Positions 49,677 to 64,000 of a DNA stretch of 64,000 nucleotides are shown in pieces (within the stretch, counting starts at the first letter, position 1; each line of letters opens with the position of its first letter). The notes beneath the pieces were generated by a model. That model worked only from the letters and a program-made list of their open reading frames with translations. It made no database searches and was not told where the DNA came from. The position numbers and the translations under genes were made by a program. Source of the DNA: a bacterium (GTDB lineage Bacteria > Zhuqueibacterota > QNDG01 > CAYUAG01); contig JAWODZ010000126.1 of the NCBI GenBank assembly GCA_046483025.1, forward strand, positions 11,981 through 75,980, in the 5' to 3' direction.

Positions 49677-51926
49677 ATGAAGAAAATTTTAGGGATTCTA
49701 CTGGTTTTGTTATTATTTAATACAGTTTTTGCTCATAATGAATTGACTCCCACAGTCAATGGGGATTCTATTATTTATGAGCTTACCATTCATTATAAAA
49801 CCGTCAATTTTACCGGAAAAGAAACCCAGGCCATAGCGGTGAACAATTCCATTCCGGCTCCCGTGCTCCGGTTTCAGGAAGGTAAAATTGCTGTAATACA
49901 AGTGACAAACGAAATGTCGGAAGAGGCGTCCATTCACTGGCATGGACTGATTCTGCCTAATTTTCAGGATGGAGTACCCTATCTTACTACACCTCCCATA
50001 CGTGCCGGTAAAACCTTTACTTACAGTTTTCCGCTCAAACAGTCAGGCACTTACTGGTATCACTCCCATACCGGGCTGCAGGAACAAAAAGGATTATACG
50101 GCGGGATTATAATTGAACCCAGAGAAAGTACAATTCAGTACGATCGGGATCTGGTCCTGGTGCTTTCGGACTGGACGGATCAGGATCCCCGCAAGGTTCT
50201 TAAAAACCTGAAACGTCATAATGAGTGGTACGGAGTAAAGATCGGAAATGCTCCCTCACTCTGGGATGCAGTAAAAAATAACACCTTGATACCCCAGTTT
50301 AAATTATGGGCTGATCAGATGCCGGGCATGCATATATCTGATATTTATTATGATGCTTTTTTGATCAACGGTAAGAAGGAACAGGTATACGAAGATTTTT
50401 TACCTGGTGAAGAGGTCAGGTTACAGGTAATAAATGCTGCTGCCTCCAGTTATTTCTGGCTCACCTGGGCCGGAGGTGATTTGGAGATTATCTCAGCAGA
50501 TGGCCTGAATGTACAGCCGGTTAAAGCTGAGAAAGTTTTGATCGGGATAGCGGAAACTTATGATTTTATCATTACAATTGCGGAAGGTAAAAGCCTTGAA
50601 TTCAGGGCCACTGCTCAGGATGTTACCGGAAGTTCATCTGTTTTTATGGGGAGAGGAAAAAGAACAGAAGCTCCCGGGATCCCTTTTCCCAATTATCAAA
50701 AGCTGGGAAGAAAGATGGCAGAGCTGCACGGGGGAGGAGACAGTATGGAGCTTAAAGGTGATGAAAAAGGTGATTTAAAAAAGCATGATAATGTCATGAA
50801 AATGTCCAGTGATCATTCTACAGATAAAATGCAGAAAAATACGGACTCAGCCATGCAGCATACCATGCAGGAAGAACATGGTATGAAAGTAACCGATCCC
50901 ATGATTATGTGGAACGCGGGGTATTCTAATACAATATTAAAATCAGTGGAACCGACAAAATTTTCCCAGGATTCCCCGGTAAGACATCTGGTTTTAAATC
51001 TTACAGGTGATATGTGGCGATATAACTGGAATATCAACGGAAAACCTCTCTCAAAAGCGGATAAGATCAGGATAAACAAAGGTGAAGTAGTCCAGATTAC
51101 TCTGAACAATACTACTATGATGCATCATCCCATGCATTTACACGGTCATTTTTTCAGAGTGCTGAATGGTAATGGAGATCATTCTCCCCTGAAACATACA
51201 GTGGACATACCCCCAATGAGCAGAACAACCATTGAATTTGCTGCCTCAGAAGATAAAGACTGGTTCTTTCACTGTCATATTCTGTATCATATGTCAGCGG
51301 GTATGGCCCGGATTTTCAGTTATAATCACAGCATTAGAGATAAAAGACTTGATAAATATCCACTCAAAAATTTCTTAAAACATGACAGTGAATGGTTTTT
51401 CTGGGGTGATATCAGCGGATTAAGTCATAAGGGGGTACTTGAACTGGTTTTGTCCAACACCTATAATCAAATTAATCTAAAAGCAGAATATGGGTGGCAA
51501 CAACAGATATATGAAGCCAAATTAGACTATGAACGATTTATCCAAAATTATTTCAGAATATACACCGGTCTGAAAGCTGAAACCGAAGAAGCTGATAACT
51601 GGGATGATCCGCATACATCCGGCAGAGTCGGTATTCGGTATTTACTTTTGTATATTTTAGATACGGATATAAGCATTGATCATCAACTGAGACCGGAAAT
51701 AGCCTTGGAAGCCCATCTGCCTCTTACCAAACGCCTGATATCGGCAGGGCATCTGGAATGGAAAAATGATTTTGGCTGGATCAATGAATTACCTGAAGGT
51801 GTGAACCAGGAAGGGGAGCTGGTCTGGAATGTGAATCTTGAATATATTTTAGGAAAGAATTTTTTGCTTTCAGCCGGATATGATAATCGTTTTGAGTGGG
51901 GAGGGGGACTTAAAATATTATTTTAA
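49677..51926 (+). CDS. multicopper oxidase (CopA/CueO-like) with Met-rich insert and an about 210-aa C-terminal beta-rich extension ending in Phe
   Basis: Copper motifs HWHGL, WYHSH, HPMHLHGH and HCHILYHMSAGM. Met-rich segment MKMSSDHSTDKMQKNTDSAMQHTMQEEHGMKVTDPMIMW. Extension from about residue 540 ends ...GGGLKILF. Confidence 0.8.
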   Translation: MKKILGILLVLLLFNTVFAHNELTPTVNGDSIIYELTIHYKTVNFTGKETQAIAVNNSIPAPVLRFQEGKIAVIQVTNEMSEEASIHWHGLILPNFQDGVPYLTTPPIRAGKTFTYSFPLKQSGTYWYHSHTGLQEQKGLYGGIIIEPRESTIQYDRDLVLVLSDWTDQDPRKVLKNLKRHNEWYGVKIGNAPSLWDAVKNNTLIPQFKLWADQMPGMHISDIYYDAFLINGKKEQVYEDFLPGEEVRLQVINAAASSYFWLTWAGGDLEIISADGLNVQPVKAEKVLIGIAETYDFIITIAEGKSLEFRATAQDVTGSSSVFMGRGKRTEAPGIPFPNYQKLGRKMAELHGGGDSMELKGDEKGDLKKHDNVMKMSSDHSTDKMQKNTDSAMQHTMQEEHGMKVTDPMIMWNAGYSNTILKSVEPTKFSQDSPVRHLVLNLTGDMWRYNWNINGKPLSKADKIRINKGEVVQITLNNTTMMHHPMHLHGHFFRVLNGNGDHSPLKHTVDIPPMSRTTIEFAASEDKDWFFHCHILYHMSAGMARIFSYNHSIRDKRLDKYPLKNFLKHDSEWFFWGDISGLSHKGVLELVLSNTYNQINLKAEYGWQQQIYEAKLDYERFIQNYFRIYTGLKAETEEADNWDDPHTSGRVGIRYLLLYILDTDISIDHQLRPEIALEAHLPLTKRLISAGHLEWKNDFGWINELPEGVNQEGELVWNVNLEYILGKNFLLSAGYDNRFEWGGGLKILF

Positions 51927-51975
51927 AAAAGTAAGATGTACATTATAAAACCTACTGAATATAAATGGCAAGGTT

Positions 51976-52614
51976 ATGAAGTTAACATTTCTGGGAACTC
52001 GTGGGTACATTGAGGCTCGAAGCCGCCATCACCGGATGCACAGTTCCCTGATGGTCAGCTATCAGGGTAAAAAAGTAATGATCGACTGCGGTGAGGACTG
52101 GCTGGGAGCAGTATATGATCTTCATCCCCGGGCTATTGTGCTCACGCATGCGCATCCGGATCATGCCGGGGGACTGAAGGGGGAAGCTCCCTGTCCGGTG
52201 TATGCTATCCGAGTATCCTGGGAAAAGTTAAAGGATTACGGAATCGAGAAGCGAGTAACTATACCGGAAAGAAAGGCGGTGACAATTGCCGGGATTACTT
52301 TCCAGGCTTTTCCCGTGGATCATTCCACCCGGGCTCCTGCAGTAGGGTACCGTATCAGCGCCGGAAAGGTGACGATTTTTTATGCCCCGGATCTGGTCTG
52401 GATCCATGACCGTACAGCAGCTCTTTCCGGGGTTAAGGTATACATCGGAGACGCGGCTACTATCAGTAAATCCCTGGTGCGCAAGATGGAGGGGAATTTA
52501 ATCGGGCATACTTTTCTTCGTACTCAACTGACCTGGTGTCAGAAAGAAGGAGTTCCCCGGGCCATATTCACTCATCTTGGCGCTGAGATTGTGGAGGGTG
52601 ACGAGCGTTCTTAA
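51976..52614 (+). CDS. MBL-fold metallo-hydrolase (truncated by an in-frame TAA; ancestral frame continues to 52698)
   Basis: HxHxDH motif LTHAHPDHAGG. After the TAA at 52612-52614 the same frame encodes KARIKKLAEERGVQVQIAWDGREEILR, which looks like the usual A.DG..I.L MBL C-terminus. Confidence 0.7.
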   Translation: MKLTFLGTRGYIEARSRHHRMHSSLMVSYQGKKVMIDCGEDWLGAVYDLHPRAIVLTHAHPDHAGGLKGEAPCPVYAIRVSWEKLKDYGIEKRVTIPERKAVTIAGITFQAFPVDHSTRAPAVGYRISAGKVTIFYAPDLVWIHDRTAALSGVKVYIGDAATISKSLVRKMEGNLIGHTFLRTQLTWCQKEGVPRAIFTHLGAEIVEGDERS

Positions 52615-52786
52615 AAAGCCAGGATAAAAAAACTGGCTGAGGAGCGGGGAGTGCAGGTACAGATTGCCTGGGACGGCAGGGAAGAGATTTTGAGATAGTT
52701 CTGTTGACAATATCAATTTTATATTTTGGCTTGATCTTCTTTTTTCAAGTTGTAAAATCAAAGCCATAGTATCTGTAACATAACTA

Positions 52787-53023
52787 TTATTCATACGGAT
52801 ATATCTTTTTACAATTGTTAAATTCCTCTTCTAAATGTACCAAGGATATTTTATTTAGACTGCTTAATTTAGTATTTATGTTTTTTTCGAAAGATTGATC
52901 TACGATATCTTTGAGTTTTTTAGTTTTAATAAACTGAATAAAATCTAAAATTTCATTTAATGACTCGAATGACAAATTTTTTGTTTCTTCAATAATCATT
53001 TTTTCTAATATTTTTTTACTCAT
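52787..53023 (-). CDS. hypothetical small protein (78 aa) in an AT-rich patch
   Basis: Minus-strand ORF with SD GGAGAAAAT upstream. No recognisable domain. Confidence 0.4.
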   Translation of the reverse strand: MSKKILEKMIIEETKNLSFESLNEILDFIQFIKTKKLKDIVDQSFEKNINTKLSSLNKISLVHLEEEFNNCKKIYPYE

Positions 53024-53264
53024 ATTTTCTCCATATCAACGTTCAATTATATTTTGAAATTTACTTAATTAAATATATATAAAAATTTGGGAATAATCAA
53101 TCGTATTTATTTTTGTAGGTTAACATTTTTTCCGTATTAGATGTAAAGTATACCATTTGTTTAGTCAGATTCCCTGAAGAGAAAAATCAGAAATTTACCT
53201 ATTGAATTTTTAGCTTTTATATTCAAAATTTAACAATAAATAAAAGTATAAAACTAGAAAAAGT

Positions 53265-53699
53265 ATGAAAGGAGAAAATATGTATTGTCACAAAATACGA
53301 AATATTCCCATTTATCTGTTTCTGGTAATTGTTGTGATTCTGACAACCGGAATTCTTACTTTGTGTAAAAAGAAAGATCCCAGAGATCAATTTGTAGTAG
53401 AAGGGTATGATGTGGAAATTGTTGATCATGAATTTCACCCCAACAGCATAGATGTGATAAAAGGAAATGAAGTAGTGTGGGAAAATCTGGGGGATACTGT
53501 GCATACAGTTACCAGCGGATTTCCCGAGGATCCCGAACATTATTTTAACAGTGACATCATCAAATCGGGTGAGGAGTTTCACGTACGCTTTGACAGTCTG
53601 GGCTCTTTTGTCTATTACTGTCAATTTCATCCTGATTCCATGACCGGGATTGTGAATGTAGTGGAAGATACCTTAATCAAAAAACCAATTAGTGAATAA
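53265..53699 (+). CDS. cupredoxin (plastocyanin/azurin-like type 1 copper protein), probable lipoprotein
   Basis: Lipobox LTLC. Type 1 Cu ligands H..(n)..YYCQFHPDSM (Cys-His-Met). An alternative start at 53280 is possible. Confidence 0.8.
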   Translation: MKGENMYCHKIRNIPIYLFLVIVVILTTGILTLCKKKDPRDQFVVEGYDVEIVDHEFHPNSIDVIKGNEVVWENLGDTVHTVTSGFPEDPEHYFNSDIIKSGEEFHVRFDSLGSFVYYCQFHPDSMTGIVNVVEDTLIKKPISE

Positions 53700-55772: not shown

Positions 55773-58067
55773 TTGAAATTAAACAAAAAAAAATTATATA
55801 CTCCGGAATTGATTGCTGCCATAATTGAAACTATCCGTGGGGCTCTCGTTATTTTAGATGAGGATCTCCGGGTTGTTCATGCAAATCAGTCTTTTTACAG
55901 CACGTTTAAAGTAAATCCTGAGGAAACGGAATCCTGTCTTCTATATGAAATAGGAAACAACCAATGGAATATTCCTAAGTTACGTGAAATCCTGGAGAAG
56001 ATACTTCCCCCAAAAAAAACTATGATGGATTTTCTGGTGGAACATGATTTTCCTCATATTGGCTACCGTATTATGAAGCTGAATGCCATACAGATTACCA
56101 GCAAAGAGAACAGGATGCCGCTGATTCTTTTGGTAATTGAAGATATAACGGACAGAAAAAATAAAGAAAGAGAACTTTATAGTTCCAGAAATCTGCTGCA
56201 ATCAATCATAGATCATGCCGGCTCTATGCTGGCCTATCTGGATAGGGATTTTAATTATGTTTATGTGAATAGACTTTATGCTGAGAACCTGGGATATACT
56301 ATAAAAGAACTGGTAGGACAAAACCACTTTAATCTGTTTAAAAAAACAGAAAATTATAAGGTGTTTAATAAAGTAAGGGAAACAGGAGAAACTGTTTACC
56401 TGCAGGATAGGATAAATCCCTTTATTCGGAATGTAAAAGAAATAAAATATTATAACTTTATTCTGTCTGCGGTTAAAAACAGTAAGGGTAAGGTGAAAGG
56501 TCTGATTTTAACTCTTATGGATACTACCCGGAGAAAAGAATATGAAGATAGCCTTGATGCCAGTGAGAAACGATATAAACTGGCCCAAAAGATGGGTGGG
56601 ATCGGCACCTGGGAGTGGAACATTGAAACCAATAAACTCACCTGGTCGAAGGAGGTTTCCCGGCTCTATGGATTAAAAAAAATTCCCTCAAACTTGACCT
56701 ATAAGGGTTTTCTCAGAATGGTTCATCATGAAGACAGAAGAGAAGTGGAACTGGCTGTGAACCGGTGTATTGAGGAGGAACAAGAATATAATGTGGATCA
56801 CCGTATCCGGTTACCTGATGGTTCCATTCACTGGCTGAGAGAAAAAGGGAATGTGGTGCGGAATAAAAACAAAATGGCTGAGAGAATGCTGGGCGTAGTA
56901 ATGGATATTACCAGCGAAAAGAAAGCAGCTTTGGAGAAAGCCAGGCTGGCTGCTATTGTAAACACCTCTACCGATGCAATTTTGCTCTATAGTTCCCGGG
57001 GTATTCTCATTCACTGGAATTCCGGGGCTCGTCTGGTGTTTGGATATTCGGAAAAGGAGATGGTGGGTAAATCTATTTTCAGATTGGTGCCGGAGAGAAA
57101 GATGGATGAGTTGAATAAAATATTAAAACAGACCCGAGAAGGCAAATCCATCCGATATCTGGAAACCATCCGGAAAAGAAAAGATGGTAAAGAAATTCAT
57201 ATTGCCCTTACTGTAACTCCCATTCGGAATGAGAAGGGAAAAGTCAGTGCCATCTCTACTGTTGAGCGGGATATTTCACATCGCAAGGAGGTGGAAGCAA
57301 AATCCAGAAAACAGCACCAGGAACTGGAGATACGGGTAAAGCAACGAACTGAGGATCTTGCCCGGAGTCGGGACAAGTTGCAGCAGGAAGTGGAAGAACG
57401 TCGTCATTATCAGAAAGAGCTTCAGTCATTGGCTTCTGGTATTTCTCTGGTTGAAGAAAGAGAACGTCGTAAAATAGCTACTTATTTACATGATCAGGTA
57501 GTTCAAAATCTGGTATATTCAAATTTAAAACTGGGTCAACTGGGTCAGATGAAGGTAAATACATCTCAGAAAAATATTTTGAAGGAAGTCTCAAAATATA
57601 TCCGGGAAACTATTGGTGATCTGCGAAACCTGACTTTTGAAATCAGTCCTCCCATTCTCTATGAACTGGGATTTATAAAAGCAGTGGAATGGCTGGCTCA
57701 GCAGTATCAGGAACAATGGAAAATATCAGTTGAAGTAAAATCTACCTCTCTTTCTGTTCCTCTTGATGAAACAAAGCGGGTAGTTTTATTTCAAAGTGTA
57801 CGGGAATGTCTGAACAACATATGTAAACATGCTCAGTCTGAGAAAAATAAAATTTTTATCCGAGAACAAAAAAATAACCTCGAAGTTGAAATAGTGGATG
57901 ATGGTGAGGGTTTTAATCCGGAAGAAGTAAAATTATCCAGTGCTTCAGCACATGGATTCGGCCTGATCAATATACGGGAAAGACTGGAATATTTGAGTGG
58001 TTCCCTGGAAATTCAATCCCAGCCGGGACAAGGAACCCGAATACGGATGCGGATTCCAATTAATTAA
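55773..58067 (+). CDS. PAS-domain sensor histidine kinase (HisKA_3 / NarL-type), copy 2
   Basis: Paralogous to 31934-33847 (for example MLAYLDRDFNYVYVNRLYAE... versus MMAYLDKDFNFIHVNTAYAE...) with one extra PAS module. H-box HDQVVQNLV. TTG start per the track. Confidence 0.85.
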   Translation: MKLNKKKLYTPELIAAIIETIRGALVILDEDLRVVHANQSFYSTFKVNPEETESCLLYEIGNNQWNIPKLREILEKILPPKKTMMDFLVEHDFPHIGYRIMKLNAIQITSKENRMPLILLVIEDITDRKNKERELYSSRNLLQSIIDHAGSMLAYLDRDFNYVYVNRLYAENLGYTIKELVGQNHFNLFKKTENYKVFNKVRETGETVYLQDRINPFIRNVKEIKYYNFILSAVKNSKGKVKGLILTLMDTTRRKEYEDSLDASEKRYKLAQKMGGIGTWEWNIETNKLTWSKEVSRLYGLKKIPSNLTYKGFLRMVHHEDRREVELAVNRCIEEEQEYNVDHRIRLPDGSIHWLREKGNVVRNKNKMAERMLGVVMDITSEKKAALEKARLAAIVNTSTDAILLYSSRGILIHWNSGARLVFGYSEKEMVGKSIFRLVPERKMDELNKILKQTREGKSIRYLETIRKRKDGKEIHIALTVTPIRNEKGKVSAISTVERDISHRKEVEAKSRKQHQELEIRVKQRTEDLARSRDKLQQEVEERRHYQKELQSLASGISLVEERERRKIATYLHDQVVQNLVYSNLKLGQLGQMKVNTSQKNILKEVSKYIRETIGDLRNLTFEISPPILYELGFIKAVEWLAQQYQEQWKISVEVKSTSLSVPLDETKRVVLFQSVRECLNNICKHAQSEKNKIFIREQKNNLEVEIVDDGEGFNPEEVKLSSASAHGFGLINIRERLEYLSGSLEIQSQPGQGTRIRMRIPIN

Positions 58068-58090: not shown

Positions 58091-58741
58091 ATGTCAATCA
58101 AGGTACTACTGGCAGAAGATCATCATATTATGCGTCAGGGCCTTCGCAGTTTATTAGAGGATCAATCCAATATAACTGTTGTGGGGGAAGCAAAAGACGG
58201 CCGGGAGACCATACAATTAGCCGGCAAGTTTAAACCTGATGTAATTGTTATGGATATAAGTATGCCTAACCTTAATGGAATGGAAGCTACTTACCAGATA
58301 CTGGAAGAACTCCCTGACGTAAAAATTATTGGATTATCGGTCCACTCTGATGAACAGTTCATTTCCGGGATGTTTCGGGCTGGAGCCTGCGGTTATCTGC
58401 TCAAAGATTGTGTAATAGATGAATTGATGAACGCTATTGATACAGTAGTACGAGATCAAATTTATATCAGCCCCTCTATTTCCAAACAGGTTATCAAGGA
58501 TTACCGACAATATCTTAAAAAAGATAAGGATTCCGTTTTTGAATTATTAACCGAGCGGGAACGAGAAGTGCTGCAGCTTATAGCAGAAGGCAAGTCCACC
58601 AAAGAGATTGCCGGTACTCTTTATGTCAGTGAAAAGACTGTAGCCACTCATCGACAGAATATGATGAACAAACTTGATATTTACAGTGTTCCAGAATTGG
58701 TGAAATATGCTATTAAAGAAGGGCTGATTTCCCTGAAATGA
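58091..58741 (+). CDS. LuxR/NarL-family response regulator, copy 2
   Basis: REC plus GerE HTH. About 60% identical to 33860-34507. Confidence 0.9.
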   Translation: MSIKVLLAEDHHIMRQGLRSLLEDQSNITVVGEAKDGRETIQLAGKFKPDVIVMDISMPNLNGMEATYQILEELPDVKIIGLSVHSDEQFISGMFRAGACGYLLKDCVIDELMNAIDTVVRDQIYISPSISKQVIKDYRQYLKKDKDSVFELLTEREREVLQLIAEGKSTKEIAGTLYVSEKTVATHRQNMMNKLDIYSVPELVKYAIKEGLISLK

Positions 58742-58876
58742 TTTCTAAAACACCCTCTCTTTTATCTCTCCCTTCGGCGAGCTCAGGAAAGGCCCTCAAG
58801 GGGGCATTCGTATTACTATTTCTTTCCCCTTGAGGGGAGATGTCCGCTGAAGGCGGACAGAGGGGTGTTTTTCCCT

Positions 58877-58899
58877 CCATTTTCCGTTACCCCGTTTCC
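58877..58899. repeat. dispersed repeat family B, copy 2, inside a 400-bp structured intergenic region
   Basis: tccattttccgttaccccgtttcc versus 16696-16719. Confidence 0.55.
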
Positions 58900-58977
58900 T
58901 TCCCCTAAACAGCGTCAACTTCAGAGTACTGTCTTCCGGCCTCTGAACGCTAATCCTCTCACGTTCTAATGCTCTCA

Positions 58978-59022
58978 GGTTCTTAAGTTCTTGTATCTTG
59001 ATTCTTGAGTCTTGAGTCTTCC
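58978..59022. repeat. tandem 7-8-bp repeat (TCTTGAG-like, 6 units)
   Basis: ttcttaagttcttgtatcttgattcttgagtcttgagtcttcc. Confidence 0.6.
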
Positions 59023-59141
59023 TTTTTCCATATCAGACTTTCTGAAGTCAATTATCAGAAACTTCCTGATTGAATTTTTCTTTTAAAATCAATACTTATA
59101 AGTATACTATAGGTTATTGATAAAAAGAAAATGGAAAAGAT

Positions 59142-59747
59142 ATGCCCAAAATTAAAATTTTAGTTGCTGATGATCATGAGATTGTACGTAAGGGGCTCCG
59201 GGAACTGATTAATCAGCAATCTGATATGGAAGTAGTATCTGAGGCAAAGGATGGAGAGGATGCGGTTCGTATGGTCCGTCAATATGCTCCAGATGTTGTG
59301 TTAATGGATGTGGTCATGCCCAACACCAATGGAATCGAGGCAACAAAAGAGATCAAATCTCAATTTCCACAAACCCGTATTATAGCCCTCTCTATTTATG
59401 CTGATCGTTCTTATGTTATTCAGATGTTCAAAATGGGGGTGTCGGGATATTTGCTCAAGGAAAGTGCTTTTAATGAATTGATTAAGGCTATTCGAAAAGC
59501 TCTTAATAATCAGGTTCATCTCAGTTATTTACTTTTTAAAGGAGTTTATCTGGAATTTCAATCTCTCATGCAGAAAGATACAGATCACAATGTACAAATA
59601 TTAAATCAAAGAGAGCAGACAGTTTTAAAGGAATTATCCGATGCGAATTCCATGAAAGAAATTGGGGAAAGAATGAATACCTCGGTTGATAGTATTGAGT
59701 CAGTGATTGAGAGTATTTTAAATAAGTGGATGTTAATTAACAGATAA
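59142..59747 (+). CDS. REC-domain protein with degenerate LuxR-type C-terminus (third member of triad 2)
   Basis: ILVADDHEIVRKGL...VLMDVVMP. C-terminal helix-turn-helix-like EIGERMNTSVDSIESVIESILNKW. Confidence 0.7.
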   Translation: MPKIKILVADDHEIVRKGLRELINQQSDMEVVSEAKDGEDAVRMVRQYAPDVVLMDVVMPNTNGIEATKEIKSQFPQTRIIALSIYADRSYVIQMFKMGVSGYLLKESAFNELIKAIRKALNNQVHLSYLLFKGVYLEFQSLMQKDTDHNVQILNQREQTVLKELSDANSMKEIGERMNTSVDSIESVIESILNKWMLINR

Positions 59748-59834
59748 AGCAAGAAGGAGAGGTGTTATATATTACCTGTAAAAAAAGTTTTATGTCCAAC
59801 GGATTACAGTGATTTTTCCTACCAGGCTCTGGAT

Positions 59835-60218
59835 GTGGCTGTTGAATTTTGTGAGAAATTTAAAGCAAAACTCTATTTGGTACATGTGATTGCACCTGTT
59901 CCGCAATCCATGGGAATGCCCACCTCAGCCGGTTTTGATATTCCCATGTATCAGGAACAGCTCAAGGAGCATAATCAGGAATCACTGAAAAAAGTGACAG
60001 AGGAAAAAATACCGGATAAAATTCAAACGGAATCCCTTATCGGGTATGGATTTGAAGCTGACAGTATCATTAAGGTTGCAGAAGAAAAAGATGTGGATCT
60101 TATAGTTATTTCCACCCATGGTCGGACTGGATTGAAACATTTTTTTCTGGGTTCTGTAGCGGAAAAGGTGCTTCGTCATACTTCCAAACCTGTGCTTACC
60201 ATCCGTGCTTCCGAGTAA
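59835..60218 (+). CDS. universal stress protein (UspA family), N-terminally truncated as annotated
   Basis: ...LYLVHV...GS...ISTHGRTGL..LGSVAEKVLRH..PVLTIR is the UspA core. The same frame upstream encodes KKVLCPTDYSDFSYQALD (the expected first strand) but has no ATG/GTG/TTG. A GTG at 59761 with SD aaggag is +1 out of frame across an A7 run (59779-59785). Confidence 0.7.
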   Translation: MAVEFCEKFKAKLYLVHVIAPVPQSMGMPTSAGFDIPMYQEQLKEHNQESLKKVTEEKIPDKIQTESLIGYGFEADSIIKVAEEKDVDLIVISTHGRTGLKHFFLGSVAEKVLRHTSKPVLTIRASE

Positions 60219-60251: not shown

Positions 60252-60683
60252 ATGCGATTATATAATAAGAAAGCAATTATCATAAGTTTTATGATTTTGT
60301 CTGTGGTTATCTGGATGGGATATTCTGACTGCCAGACTGTATCAGAAGATACTCCGAAAAAGTCTTCGGATAGTTTAAAAGTTGCTGGATCCGAAATACA
60401 ATCTGATAAACCGGGAAAAGTCAAAAGAGAATCTGAGACAGATTCCCTGGAAAAACAGATACAATCAGTAGTTTCCCAGATTCAAAGAAAAGAAAATGCC
60501 CTGGAAGAAAAGGAAGCTGAACTGCAAAAGAAAGAAAAACGCTTGCACCGTATGCAGTGGATTTCCTGGATTTTTTTTGGAGTTGGAATTGTTGCTCTGG
60601 GTTTGACTGTGGGAATAATATGGTTTCGACAAAAATCCGGAAAAGAATCCAAACAAACCTCTTCTGCAAAGAAAAAGCAGTAA
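60252..60683 (+). CDS. hypothetical membrane-anchored coiled-coil protein
   Basis: N-terminal TM/signal, central coiled coil (ENALEEKEAELQKKEKRL), C-terminal TM and a basic tail. Confidence 0.45.
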   Translation: MRLYNKKAIIISFMILSVVIWMGYSDCQTVSEDTPKKSSDSLKVAGSEIQSDKPGKVKRESETDSLEKQIQSVVSQIQRKENALEEKEAELQKKEKRLHRMQWISWIFFGVGIVALGLTVGIIWFRQKSGKESKQTSSAKKKQ

Positions 60684-60842: not shown

Positions 60843-62762
60843 ATGATAAAGAAGCAAAATAATTCCAATAGTTCAACGTCACAAAAAAGTCCTAAAAAGC
60901 ATTTTTTTGGAAATAAATATTTCATTCCGTTTTTCTGGATGCTGATGTTACTGTTGTTGGTTTGGTTTTTAATTTTACAGCCGCGTGGCAGGAAAAGCAT
61001 TACTATTCCCTATTCAGAGTTTAAAAAGGAAGTTAAACAGAACAGGATACAATCAATAACTGTGAAGGGCCAACAAATTACCGGAGAGTTCAGTGAATTC
61101 TATTTAGAAATAGATAAAAAAAATGAGGATACTCTGACTTATACCTATTTTTCCACCATTAAACCCCCTTTTGAAGATACAGAATTAATAGGGCTATTGG
61201 AAAAACATGAGGTAGAAGTTAAGGCTAGCAAAAAAGATGGATCCTGGCTTCAGACTGCCTTGATTTTCCTCTTACCCTGGATTTTGATTATCGGATATTT
61301 TGTTTATATGGGCCGTAAAATGAAGGGGGGAAAAAAGGGAATGATGGGAGGTGGAATCTTTGATGTGGGAAAGTCCCGTGTTAAGCGGTATAAAAAGGGC
61401 AGTTCGAATGTTACTTTTAAGGATGTTGCCGGGTTAAAAAATGCCAAGCAGGATCTCCGTGAGATCATTGATTATTTGAAAGAACCGGAGAAATTTAAAA
61501 CCCTGGGGGCTGATATCCCCAAAGGAGTTTTATTGATGGGCCCTCCGGGAACAGGAAAGACCTTATTAGGAAGAGCAACTGCAGGTGAAGCAGATGTTTC
61601 TTTTTTCAGTATCAGTGGGTCCGAATTTATTGAAATGTTTGTAGGGGTGGGCGCTTCCCGGGTTCGGGATATGTTTAACAAAGCCAAAAAAGAAGCTCCT
61701 GCGGTTATTTTTATTGATGAAATTGATTCAGTAGGCCGTTCCCGGGGTACTGGTCTGGGGGGTGGTCATGATGAACGGGAACAGACCCTTAATCAGATTC
61801 TATCTGAAATGGATGGATTTTTACCCAATCAATCCGTAGTGGTTATTGCAGCGACCAACCGTCCTGATGTACTTGATCCTGCTCTGACCAGACCGGGGAG
61901 ATTCGATCGGCAAATCACTCTGGAATTACCGGTTAAAGATGCCAGAAAAGAGATTTTAAAAATACATACTCAATCAGTGCCTTTGGCACAAGATACTGAT
62001 TTGAATAATATTGCAGCCCGGACCGTAGGGTTTTCCGGCGCTGATCTTAAAAATTTAGTCAATGAAGCTGCTTTACTGGCTGGTAGAAAGGGTAAAAACA
62101 AGGTTGAACCTAAGGATTTTGATAAGGCCAGAGATAAAATCCTGTTGGGCGCAGAACGGGAAGAAACTATTGAAGATGATGAAAAGCGGCTTATTTCTTA
62201 TCATGAAGCTGGGCATGCCCTGATAGCTACCAAGCTTCCTCATGCTGATCCTCTGCAAAAAGTAACCATTATTCCACGGGGTAGAAGCCTGGGGGTTACC
62301 GAGCAAATCCCAGAGAGCGACAGACATAATCTGAGCAAGTCTTATATGCTGGATCGGATTACAGTGGCTTTGGGAGGAAGAGCTGCGGAAAAATTGATGT
62401 TTAAAGAGATGACCAATGGAGCAGCTAATGATCTGAAACATGTTACCCGGATTGTGCGCCGCATGATAACTCAATGGGGTATGAGTGAAAGGTTAGGTCC
62501 CAGGACATTTCGTCAGGATGAAGATCATCCTTTTCTGGGCCGGGAAATGGCTTCCACCAGGAATTTCAGTGAAGAAACTGCCCGAATAATTGATGAAGAA
62601 ATTCAAAGAATTTTAAAAGATATGGAGACCAGAGCCTTGGATATTCTGAAACAGAACCGTAAACAGTTGGATGCACTGTCCAATGCTCTTCTGGATAAGG
62701 AAACTCTGGACGGGGATGAGATTGAATCGATTTTAAAAAGTCAAAAACAAAAAAAGAAATAA
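60843..62762 (+). CDS. ftsH: ATP-dependent zinc metalloprotease FtsH
   Basis: Walker [20 protein letters not shown] zinc motif, two N-terminal TM helices. Confidence 0.95.
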
Positions 62763-62775
62763 GTTCAGAAAATAT

Positions 62776-62804
62776 TTGACACATTCAGTTATTTGGAAAT
62801 AAAT
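62776..62804 (+). promoter_or_regulatory. sigma70-like promoter TTGACA-17-ATAAAT
   Basis: ttgacacattcagttatttggaaataaat, 27 bp upstream of the ATG at 62831. Confidence 0.5.
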
Positions 62805-62830
62805 GCCCTTATCATCAAAGGAGTTTTAAA

Positions 62831-63415
62831 ATGCAAGTACCGTTAGAAATATCCTACAGAAAGGTAGAAAAAACAGAAAAAATTGAAAACCTTATCCGGC
62901 AAAAAGCAGGGTCACTGGAACAGGCTCATAATCATATCACATCCTGCCGGGTAGCAGTGGAAAAACCCCAGCAGCATCAAAGCAGAGGAAATCCTTACCG
63001 GGTGAGAATTGATCTTACCGTACCACCCGGGCATGAGATTGTAGTCAAACAGGAACCTTCAAAAGGCATTTTACATCGAGGATTGGATGCTGTGATAAGA
63101 AAAGCTTTTTCATCTGCGCGCAGACAGCTGAAAAAACTGGACCAGCGCCAAAGAGGAAAGGTTAAAGCACATCCTGCGGAAACAGAGAATCAGGGTATTG
63201 TCAAACGTATTTTTCCGGAACGTGGCTATGGTTTCTTGAGAACCCTGGATGGACGAGATGTTTATTTTAATAGAAACAGCGTAATACATAACGATTTTGA
63301 TCGGTTGGAAGTCGGCACTGTAGTCCGCTATAGTGAAGAAATGGGAATCAAGGGGCCTCAGGCGAGCACTGTACAAATCGTGGATAAACCGGGTTCTCGG
63401 ATATCGGAGTTGTAA
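62831..63415 (+). CDS. ribosome hibernation factor (HPF/RaiA, S30AE domain) fused to a C-terminal cold-shock domain
   Basis: Residues 1-110 match the HPF pattern (I.I.....V..TE.I...I..K...LE......I....V.V....Q.........V.I.L.VPG.E.V..........L..A.D....K......QLKK). Residues about 125-190 have the CSD motifs RGYGFL and VYFN. Confidence 0.65.
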   Translation: MQVPLEISYRKVEKTEKIENLIRQKAGSLEQAHNHITSCRVAVEKPQQHQSRGNPYRVRIDLTVPPGHEIVVKQEPSKGILHRGLDAVIRKAFSSARRQLKKLDQRQRGKVKAHPAETENQGIVKRIFPERGYGFLRTLDGRDVYFNRNSVIHNDFDRLEVGTVVRYSEEMGIKGPQASTVQIVDKPGSRISEL

Positions 63416-63417
63416 GA

Positions 63418-64000
63418 ATGATGCAAATTCCTGAAAAAGTAAGGAAAAGAGACGGATCAGAGGATCAGTTTGACTCACAGAAGATCACCGAGGCTGTCAG
63501 GAAAGCAGCAACAGAAGTGGTACAGGATCAGAAGAAAGCAAAAACGATTGCTGAACAAGTGACTGAGACAGTAATAAAAAATCTATCCAGGGAAAAAAAT
63601 CCAACTATCGAGACCACTCAGGATGCAGTTGAATCTGCACTGATGGAATCCGGTTATATTCAGATTGCCAGAGCCTATATTCTATACCGGAGTGATCACA
63701 GCCGGATTCGAAAATCAAAATCGGTTTTAGGACTTCAGGATGACATAAAGCTTCCGGTAAACAGTCTTATGGTTTTAAGAAGCCGATACCTTCGGAAGGA
63801 TAACAAACAAAATATTATAGAAACACCACGGGAGATGTTCCGCAGAGTTGCTCATCATGTATCCCGTGCAGAAGAGCGACTGAACACGCAGAAATCTCCT
63901 GATGAGGTAGAAGATACATTCTTCAAAATGATGAAACAGCTTGAATTCCTTCCTAACTTGCCTACCTTAATGAACGCCGGGTCCCCATTGGGACAGCTTG
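63418..64000 (+). CDS. nrdJ: class II (adenosylcobalamin-dependent) ribonucleotide reductase, N-terminal part with ATP-cone (runs off the window end)
   Basis: ATP-cone VRKRDGSEDQFDSQKI. Downstream RNR motif PNLPTLMNAG. No stop before 64000, so it is absent from the ORF track. Confidence 0.7.
   Translation, partial: MMQIPEKVRKRDGSEDQFDSQKITEAVRKAATEVVQDQKKAKTIAEQVTETVIKNLSREKNPTIETTQDAVESALMESGYIQIARAYILYRSDHSRIRKSKSVLGLQDDIKLPVNSLMVLRSRYLRKDNKQNIIETPREMFRRVAHHVSRAEERLNTQKSPDEVEDTFFKMMKQLEFLPNLPTLMNAGSPLGQL

Follow-up and report, generated by a model that had tools for sequence, protein, structure and literature searches.

In the 64-kb window, by which we mean the whole stretch of DNA that was analysed, the gene at 62831..63415 on the + strand encodes a 194-residue protein in which a ribosome hibernation promoting factor (HPF) domain is followed by a cold-shock domain (CSD). 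Judged by its sequence, it is one more orthologue of HPFcold, a named and widespread class whose architecture is already known. We estimate at roughly 80% the probability that the protein works as the HPFcold of Coxiella burnetii does. By analogy to that protein, ribosome binding, a hibernating 70S state and protection from RNases would be expected in the source organism.

The open reading frame (ORF) starts with ATG, stops with TAA and lies exactly where a preliminary description of this DNA had placed it. A Shine-Dalgarno (SD) sequence, AAAGGAG (62817..62823, +), can be read 7 nt 5' of the start codon, and it is also kept, as GAGGAG, in the locus of an 80%-identical relative (L084). In Pfam, both domains suspected in the preliminary description pass their curated cut-offs: PF02482 (Ribosomal_S30AE) covers residues 6-107 with 43.3 bits against a gathering cut-off of 23.7 (E 6.5e-11), and PF00313 (CSD) covers residues 121-182 with 37.2 bits against a cut-off of 27 (E 2.7e-09). 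The 194-residue protein gave no match up to E = 10 to PF16321, the C-terminal dimerisation domain of long HPFs. Since only PF02482 and PF00313 were found up to that value, the long-HPF C-terminal domain is absent. The strings from which the two domains had been recognised are all present, namely the basic helix DAVIRKAFSSARRQLKK at residues 86-102, RGYGFL at 131-136 and VYFN at 144-147.

Structure prediction gave the same division of the protein. An AlphaFold2 model built with 39 homologues as input has a mean predicted local distance difference test (pLDDT) score of 84.4. The N-terminal S30AE/HPF domain (residues 1-110; 62831..63160, +) is modelled as beta-alpha-beta-beta-beta-alpha, with a long loop between β2 and β3 (residues 45-56) and a long basic helix (residues 85-110). 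It is followed by an inter-domain linker, VKAHPAETE (residues 111-119; 63161..63187, +), which is disordered at residues 111-117 (pLDDT <50), and by the C-terminal CSD (residues 120-185; 63188..63385, +), a five-stranded barrel. In Foldseek searches, the N-terminal domain matched ribosome-bound RaiA/HPF chains with template modelling (TM) scores of 0.72-0.88 (8rd8_D, 0.87), and the C-terminal domain matched CspC, CspE and CspA with TM scores of 0.84-0.88 at ~32% identity. The HPFcold entry was not among the Foldseek matches (PDB to 2026-04-08), which were to the separate domains only. Pfam, AlphaFold2 and Foldseek agree on a fusion in which a CSD takes the place of the long-HPF dimerisation domain, as had been proposed.

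A sequence search of the PDB returned a full-length match (residues 1-182, E 2.2e-35) to the chain 9t0z_9/9tze, entered as 'Ribosome hibernation promoting factor', and pairwise alignment to its source protein gave 40% identity over 181 aligned positions (E 1e-43). This chain is CBU_0020 of Coxiella burnetii, named HPFcold, whose orthologue in Legionella pneumophila is Q5ZW81 (Stuart et al., Nat Commun 2026, PMC13392368). In the cryo-electron microscopy (cryo-EM) structure of the Coxiella complex, the S30AE domain occupies the tRNA/decoding cleft of the 30S subunit, and the CSD lies in the mRNA exit channel, where it wraps the anti-SD at the 3' end of the 16S ribosomal RNA (rRNA), is clamped by bS21 and is contacted by uS7 (PMC13392368). 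The particle is a 70S monomer, and ribosome dimers were not seen by the authors (PMC13392368). In the proposal of Stuart et al., the CSD guards the 16S 3' end, which is sensitive to RNases, and 100S dimers are therefore no longer needed (PMC13392368).

Combining the published contacts with our alignments provided insights into which features of this binding are shared. In Supplementary Fig. 3 of that study, U1534 stacks on Y142, C1535 stacks on F132 and pseudo-pairs with R123, and R177 bridges G924-925 and C1530 (PMC13392368). In the pairwise alignment, Coxiella R123, F132, Y142 and R177 correspond to R126, F135, Y145 and T180 of the window protein; the codons of the first three lie at 63206-63208, 63233-63235 and 63263-63265 (+). 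In an alignment of 40 sequences that includes the Coxiella protein, all 40 have F at position 135, 38 have Y at 145 and 32 have R or K at 126. To judge from this alignment, the family as a whole has three of the four published contacts, and the window protein retains them. The residues that contact the anti-SD are conserved far beyond Proteobacteria, which supports anti-SD shielding as the general function of the fusion.

Features outside these contacts point in the same direction. A β2-β3 loop insertion sets CBU_0020 apart from the short HPF CBU_0745 (PMC13392368). The extended loop of the window protein (residues 45-56, KPQQHQSRGNPY; 62963..62998, +), an insertion relative to canonical HPFs, aligns with HPFcold ungapped; against the short HPF 9sda_9 the gap is 7 residues and against Staphylococcus aureus HPF it is 4. 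Among the 39 homologues, G53, R57 and R59 are invariant, as is K112 in the linker, and H114 is nearly so. The conserved K-x-H-P motif to which the latter two belong aligns with VKTHP in Coxiella. The CSD is better conserved than the N-terminal domain (majority fraction 0.74 vs 0.68), and a higher conservation of the CSD has also been published for the HPFcold family (PMC13392368). The window protein resembles Coxiella HPFcold in its order of S30AE domain, short linker and CSD, in the loop insertion, in the VK-x-HP linker, in the R/F/Y contact residues and in the N of 'YFN' in RNP2. It differs by a 5-residue insertion, SKGIL, before helix 2 and by a linker that is 2 residues longer (~7-9 residues compared with six in Coxiella). 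The setting also differs, as the window gene has ftsH on its 5' side and nrdJ on its 3' side and the host is an uncultured, low-GC (38.6%) bacterium.

The mechanism that we propose follows the Coxiella structure. The strongly basic S30AE domain (23 lysines and arginines vs 11 aspartates and glutamates) would insert into the decoding/tRNA cleft of the 30S subunit, occluding the A and P sites and keeping out tRNA and mRNA. The K-x-H-P linker would lead the CSD into the mRNA exit channel, where its aromatic and basic ribonucleoprotein (RNP) surface, with R126, F135 and Y145, could stack on and pair with the anti-SD at the 16S rRNA 3' end. The ribosome would be left idle as a 70S particle, its exposed 16S 3' end protected from RNase attack, with no 100S dimerisation needed. 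An SD core motif was found 5' of 23 of 49 genes, compared with 7 of 49 control positions. The source organism thus appears to use SD sequences, and a functional anti-SD target is therefore expected.

Several observations weigh against a mode of action shared in full with the Coxiella protein. The identity to this characterised homologue is only 40%. The counterpart of Coxiella R177 is T180 here, and this position is S or T in 39 of the 40 aligned sequences and R only in Coxiella. With R177 replaced, part of the Coxiella binding mode may be lineage-specific; the R177 contact itself looks Coxiella-specific rather than family-defining. Residue 147 is N both here and in Coxiella and is H in 37 of the 40. 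The AlphaFold2 geometry between the two domains is not confident, with a predicted TM score (pTM) of 0.54. The host 16S rRNA 3' end and the bS21 gene lie outside the 64-kb window, and an Rfam scan of the whole window gave no rRNA or other RNA match. Finally, the protein scores 23.5 bits with TIGR00741, the NCBIfam equivalog for HPF/YfiA, against a cut-off of 40.9, and its best score with a Csp equivalog is 35.4 bits against cut-offs of 111-152. Because the HPF/YfiA and individual Csp equivalogs all stay below their cut-offs, both domains are divergent members of their superfamilies, and by its sequence the N-terminal domain is a divergent HPF.

The preliminary description had suggested that the CSD would bind single-stranded RNA and might link 100S/hibernation control to the handling of mRNA in the cold or in stationary phase. 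The first part of this was right in kind. CSDs generally bind any pyrimidine-rich single strand, and the CSD of the window protein keeps most of the canonical RNP aromatics (Y133, F135, Y145 and F156) and matches the CspA/CspE models at E 1e-7 to 1e-9. These features would also suit a protein that is anchored to the ribosome by its HPF domain and uses the CSD to bind single-stranded mRNA, in the manner of an RNA chaperone or antiterminator, so that hibernation is coupled to cold or stationary-phase mRNA handling. However, every Csp equivalog score is far under its cut-off, and R126 and R148 replace the positions that we take to be W8 and F30 of Bs-CspB, by a manual mapping onto the Bs-CspB sequence and its binding residues. 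In addition, the conserved residues are those that contact the anti-SD. In the Coxiella structure, the RNA bound is the 16S 3' end and not mRNA; the anti-SD takes up the CSD surface, and the protein fills the mRNA path (PMC13392368). We therefore consider mRNA handling by the CSD unlikely.

The suggested link to 100S ribosomes can be weighed in a similar way. The CSD sits where a long HPF has its dimerisation domain, which would allow it to act as a substitute dimerisation module and the protein to form 100S dimers as long HPFs do. Some cold-shock proteins, such as CspD, dimerise. Dimers mediated by the CSD, possibly lost in sample preparation, are also allowed for by Stuart et al. (PMC13392368). 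Against this, the Coxiella structure is of a 70S ribosome and the data contain no dimers, and the CSD lies buried, with bS21, uS7 and the anti-SD around it (PMC13392368). PF16321 is absent from the window protein, and its conserved surface is the RNA-binding face. We regard 100S dimerisation as slightly less probable again than mRNA handling. The homologous structure speaks against both, as does the fact that conservation falls on the surface in contact with the anti-SD, and shielding of the anti-SD on a 70S ribosome remains our preferred interpretation.

Lastly, the protein could be a defence effector or another effector that binds nucleic acid away from the ribosome, for example one like that of retron Se72, or the ORF could be an assembly artefact joining two genes. 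Among the NCBIfam models, retron_eff_Se72 has the lowest E-value (7.3e-09). It reaches 35.4 bits where the cut-off is 82, covers only the generic CSD and has no retron context, and we rejected this assignment. Between the immediate neighbours, ftsH and nrdJ, there is no gene for a reverse transcriptase, and no Rfam family was found in the window. As for an artefact, the same ORF recurs in an independent assembly (Logan SRR31818008), and thousands of homologues have the same fusion. Both explanations are very improbable.

The fusion is widespread. A homology search returned 3,208 matches, and 120 of the 120 listed carry both Pfam domains. When 1.84 billion cluster representatives were searched exhaustively with HMMER, 181 clusters (50% identity) matched at E<=1e-30, with near-complete length coverage among the matches listed, and 1,587 at E<=1e-10. 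Relatives are encoded by at least 566 species-representative genomes. Going by the titles of their records, these genomes include Cyanobacteria, Desulfobacterales, Syntrophobacteria, Ignavibacteria, Calditrichaceae, Fibrobacteres, Spirochaetes, Dehalococcoidia, Lentisphaeria, Omnitrophota, and the acidobacterial Solibacteraceae, Bryobacteraceae and Thermoanaerobaculia. Among named relatives, those nearest to the window protein, at 71% identity, belong to candidate division KSB1. HPFcold has been characterised so far only in Coxiella, and our analysis shows close structural counterparts in uncultured, low-GC, KSB1-related bacteria.

NCBI already contains the identical protein under the name 'MAG: HPF/RaiA family ribosome-associated protein [bacterium]', which gives no hint of the CSD or of the probable 70S mode. 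A frequent JGI name of homologues is 'cold shock CspA family protein/ribosome-associated translation inhibitor RaiA'. The novelty implied in the preliminary description does not hold, as Chan et al. (2025) had described the class and Stuart et al. (2026) had determined a cryo-EM structure. Chan et al. independently reported chimeras in which HPF is joined to a Csp, SigE or CBS domain and which, by their account, are mis-annotated as long HPFs, coexist with a canonical HPF and are encoded at variable loci, often beside Balon (bioRxiv 10.1101/2025.11.04.686544). The window protein resembles these HPF-Csp, HPF-SigE and HPF-CBS chimeras in that a stress-protein domain replaces the dimerisation domain. 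The 64-kb window holds no Balon-like gene. When it was searched with the N-domain and CSD hidden Markov models, and by phmmer with an E. coli HPF sequence and a Balon-like protein as queries, the only match was the gene itself, with no further S30AE, CSD or Balon-like ORF.

The window protein can also be compared with other hibernation factors and with cold-shock proteins. With the long HPFs of S. aureus and L. lactis (PF02482 and PF16321), it shares the N-terminal S30AE fold, a length of ~190 residues and the NCBI name, but it has a CSD and not PF16321, and hibernation is expected as 70S instead of 100S ribosomes. With RaiA and the short HPFs (E. coli YfiA and HPF), it shares the fold of the N-terminal domain and presumably the site at the decoding centre. 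However, those proteins consist of a single domain of 95-113 residues and lack the CSD and the β2-β3 insertion. RaiA gives 70S hibernation through its C-terminal tail, and short HPF depends on RMF for protection of the anti-SD region. The stand-alone CspA, CspB and CspE, of a family of single-domain proteins of ~70 residues, have the same five-stranded OB fold and RNP1 and RNP2 aromatics, whereas the CSD here is fused within a 194-residue protein and its Csp scores are below cut-off.

Some homologues carry additional sequence. In alignment A1, 14 of the 39 homologues have an additional, acidic C-terminal tail with a conserved PP[LA]GW motif at its end (for example P0010, P0011, P0016, P0042, P0054, P0069, P0103, P0113, P0114 and P0118). 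This tail is absent from the window protein and from Coxiella HPFcold. Other representatives that match over the full length are longer, such as P0123 (351 residues), P0183 (425), P0247 and P0264 (324 each) and P0260 (364). Being 130-230 residues longer, they suggest further domain additions to the HPF-CSD core.

The expression of the gene may be tied to its neighbours. The preliminary description had assigned it a promoter of its own, TTGACA-17-ATAAAT (62776..62804, +; hexamers at 62776-62781 and 62799-62804), a candidate whose letters are present in the sequence. ATAAAT agrees with TATAAT at 3 of 6 positions and misses the A at position 2. A sigma-70 scan of 62400-64000 did not call this candidate; it found 2 promoter-like sites in the region, compared with 3.3 expected from shuffles. 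Neither hexamer is kept in the intergenic region of L084. With a weak -10 hexamer, no call by the scan and no conservation in that relative, the claim of a separate promoter was not borne out, and we treat the string as a chance occurrence or a weak promoter. The scan also found no terminator-like site on the + strand between ftsH and the HPFcold gene, and there may be read-through from ftsH into the latter. A search for a regulatory motif shared across the intergenic regions of the cluster gave AT-rich 9-mers only, none of them convincing.

Both of the immediate neighbours named earlier are confirmed by family matches. The ftsH gene (60843..62762, +; 639 residues, with FtsH_ext, AAA and Peptidase_M41 domains) ends 68 nt from the HPFcold gene. 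On the other side, the 5' part of a gene for a class II ribonucleotide reductase, nrdJ/Z, occupies 63418..64000 (+). The full protein has 590 residues with ATP-cone, RNR_lgN and RNR_lgC domains and scores 470.8 bits with TIGR02504 against a cut-off of 399.95. Beyond the window (in L001), genes for a DHH phosphoesterase and then a DUF498 protein follow on the + strand. The start of nrdJ lies 2 nt past the HPFcold stop codon, with its SD sequence GGAG (63406-63409) inside the HPFcold gene, and in L084 their coding sequences overlap (ATGA junction). Taken together, the 2-nt spacing here and the overlap in L084 suggest that operon membership, and possibly translational coupling of nrdJ, are conserved in a narrow lineage.

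Five further genes precede ftsH on the + strand. They encode a PAS-HisKA_3 histidine kinase (55773-58067), two LuxR/NarL-type response regulators (58091-58741 and 59142-59747), a Usp protein (59769-60218) and a 143-residue protein without a family match (60252-60683). This co-directional run suggests that HPFcold may be expressed with stress or slow-growth functions.

The wider synteny was examined by tblastn in 80 species-representative loci. A conserved ftsH-HPFcold-nrdJ order was rejected: FtsH is near in 3 of the 80 loci and NrdJ in 1, and the arrangement is lineage-specific, common only to the window and L084. In two other relatives, 76% and 71% identical, the second of which is named KSB1, a LonC-type protease is encoded 3' of HPFcold (L082:6544-8967 and L083:5567-7990). 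With FtsH on the 5' side here and LonC on the 3' side there, an AAA+ protease stands beside HPFcold each time in this clade.

Across the family, other neighbours recur. A phosphoribosyltransferase (PRTase) gene (PF00156, ~220-250 residues) lies within 400 bp of HPFcold in 15 of the 80 loci (L005, L006, L012, L020, L027, L028, L033, L034, L039, L044, L050, L053, L055, L056 and L080), nearly always directly 5' and on the same strand. Eleven of these loci are from Nostocales, and the others are from Calditrichaceae, Desulfobacterales, Spirochaetaceae and Ignavibacteriaceae. A Balon-like baeRF gene is found ~400 bp or less from HPFcold in 7 of the 80 loci (L025, L051, L066, L068, L071, L074 and L081) and within 8 kb in 11; the proteins match PF18849/PF18845, and NF052287 at E 2.4e-32. 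This adjacency agrees with the report of Chan et al. (bioRxiv 10.1101/2025.11.04.686544). A DUF2267 gene lies within 200 bp 5' of HPFcold in four of the 80 loci (L003, L016, L040 and L071). We know of no earlier description of a link between DUF2267 and HPFcold.

HPFcold could be the ribosome-silencing part of a dormancy module like the DosR regulon in the source lineage, a reading that we hold possible though doubtful. It draws on the co-directional genes for the kinase, the regulators, Usp, the protein without a family match, FtsH, HPFcold and the coupled NrdJ/Z, and on the recurrence of PRTase, Balon-like and DUF2267 neighbours across the family. The mycobacterial DosR regulon includes the S30AE protein Rv0079, nrdZ, Usp proteins and a protein with a PRTase domain. 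The Balon homologue Rv2629 is activated by hypoxia, according to the Balon paper. No literature joining 'ribosome hibernation', 'phosphoribosyltransferase' and 'DosR' was found. If the reading is true, the storage of ribosomes and the supply of nucleotides would be coordinated by a conserved 'hibernation island' that has so far gone undescribed. The nrdJ coupling in the source lineage and the PRTase, DUF2267 and Balon neighbourhood in the family are modest starting points for understanding the co-regulation of hibernation genes, and we regard them as the only leads here that are mildly novel.

The region on the 5' side of ftsH showed a few further features. The Usp gene has apparently lost its ATG. 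The window reads ATA TTA CCT GTA AAA where L084 (758-1216) reads ATG TTA CCT ATA AAA (MLPIKKIL...), and the ribosome-binding site ahead of this position is the same in both. The first canonical start is a GTG at 59835, which would give 127 residues and leave positions 1-20 of the Usp profile uncovered. The ATA could be a non-canonical start, a start-codon mutation or a sequencing error. The 400-nt gap between the two response-regulator genes (58742-59141) holds three structured repeats, of which no further copies were found elsewhere in the window. They are a perfect 11-nt inverted repeat, CCCTCAAGGGG / CCCCTTGAGGG, at 58793 and 58826, a hairpin, GTCCGCTGAAGGCGGAC, at 58842, and tandem TCTTGAG units at 59003. 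Farther 5' of the cluster, a copper-related group (49677-53699) comprises genes for a 749-residue multicopper oxidase (49677-51926), a protein with a metallo-beta-lactamase fold (51976-52614) and a cupredoxin/plastocyanin-like protein (53265-53699).

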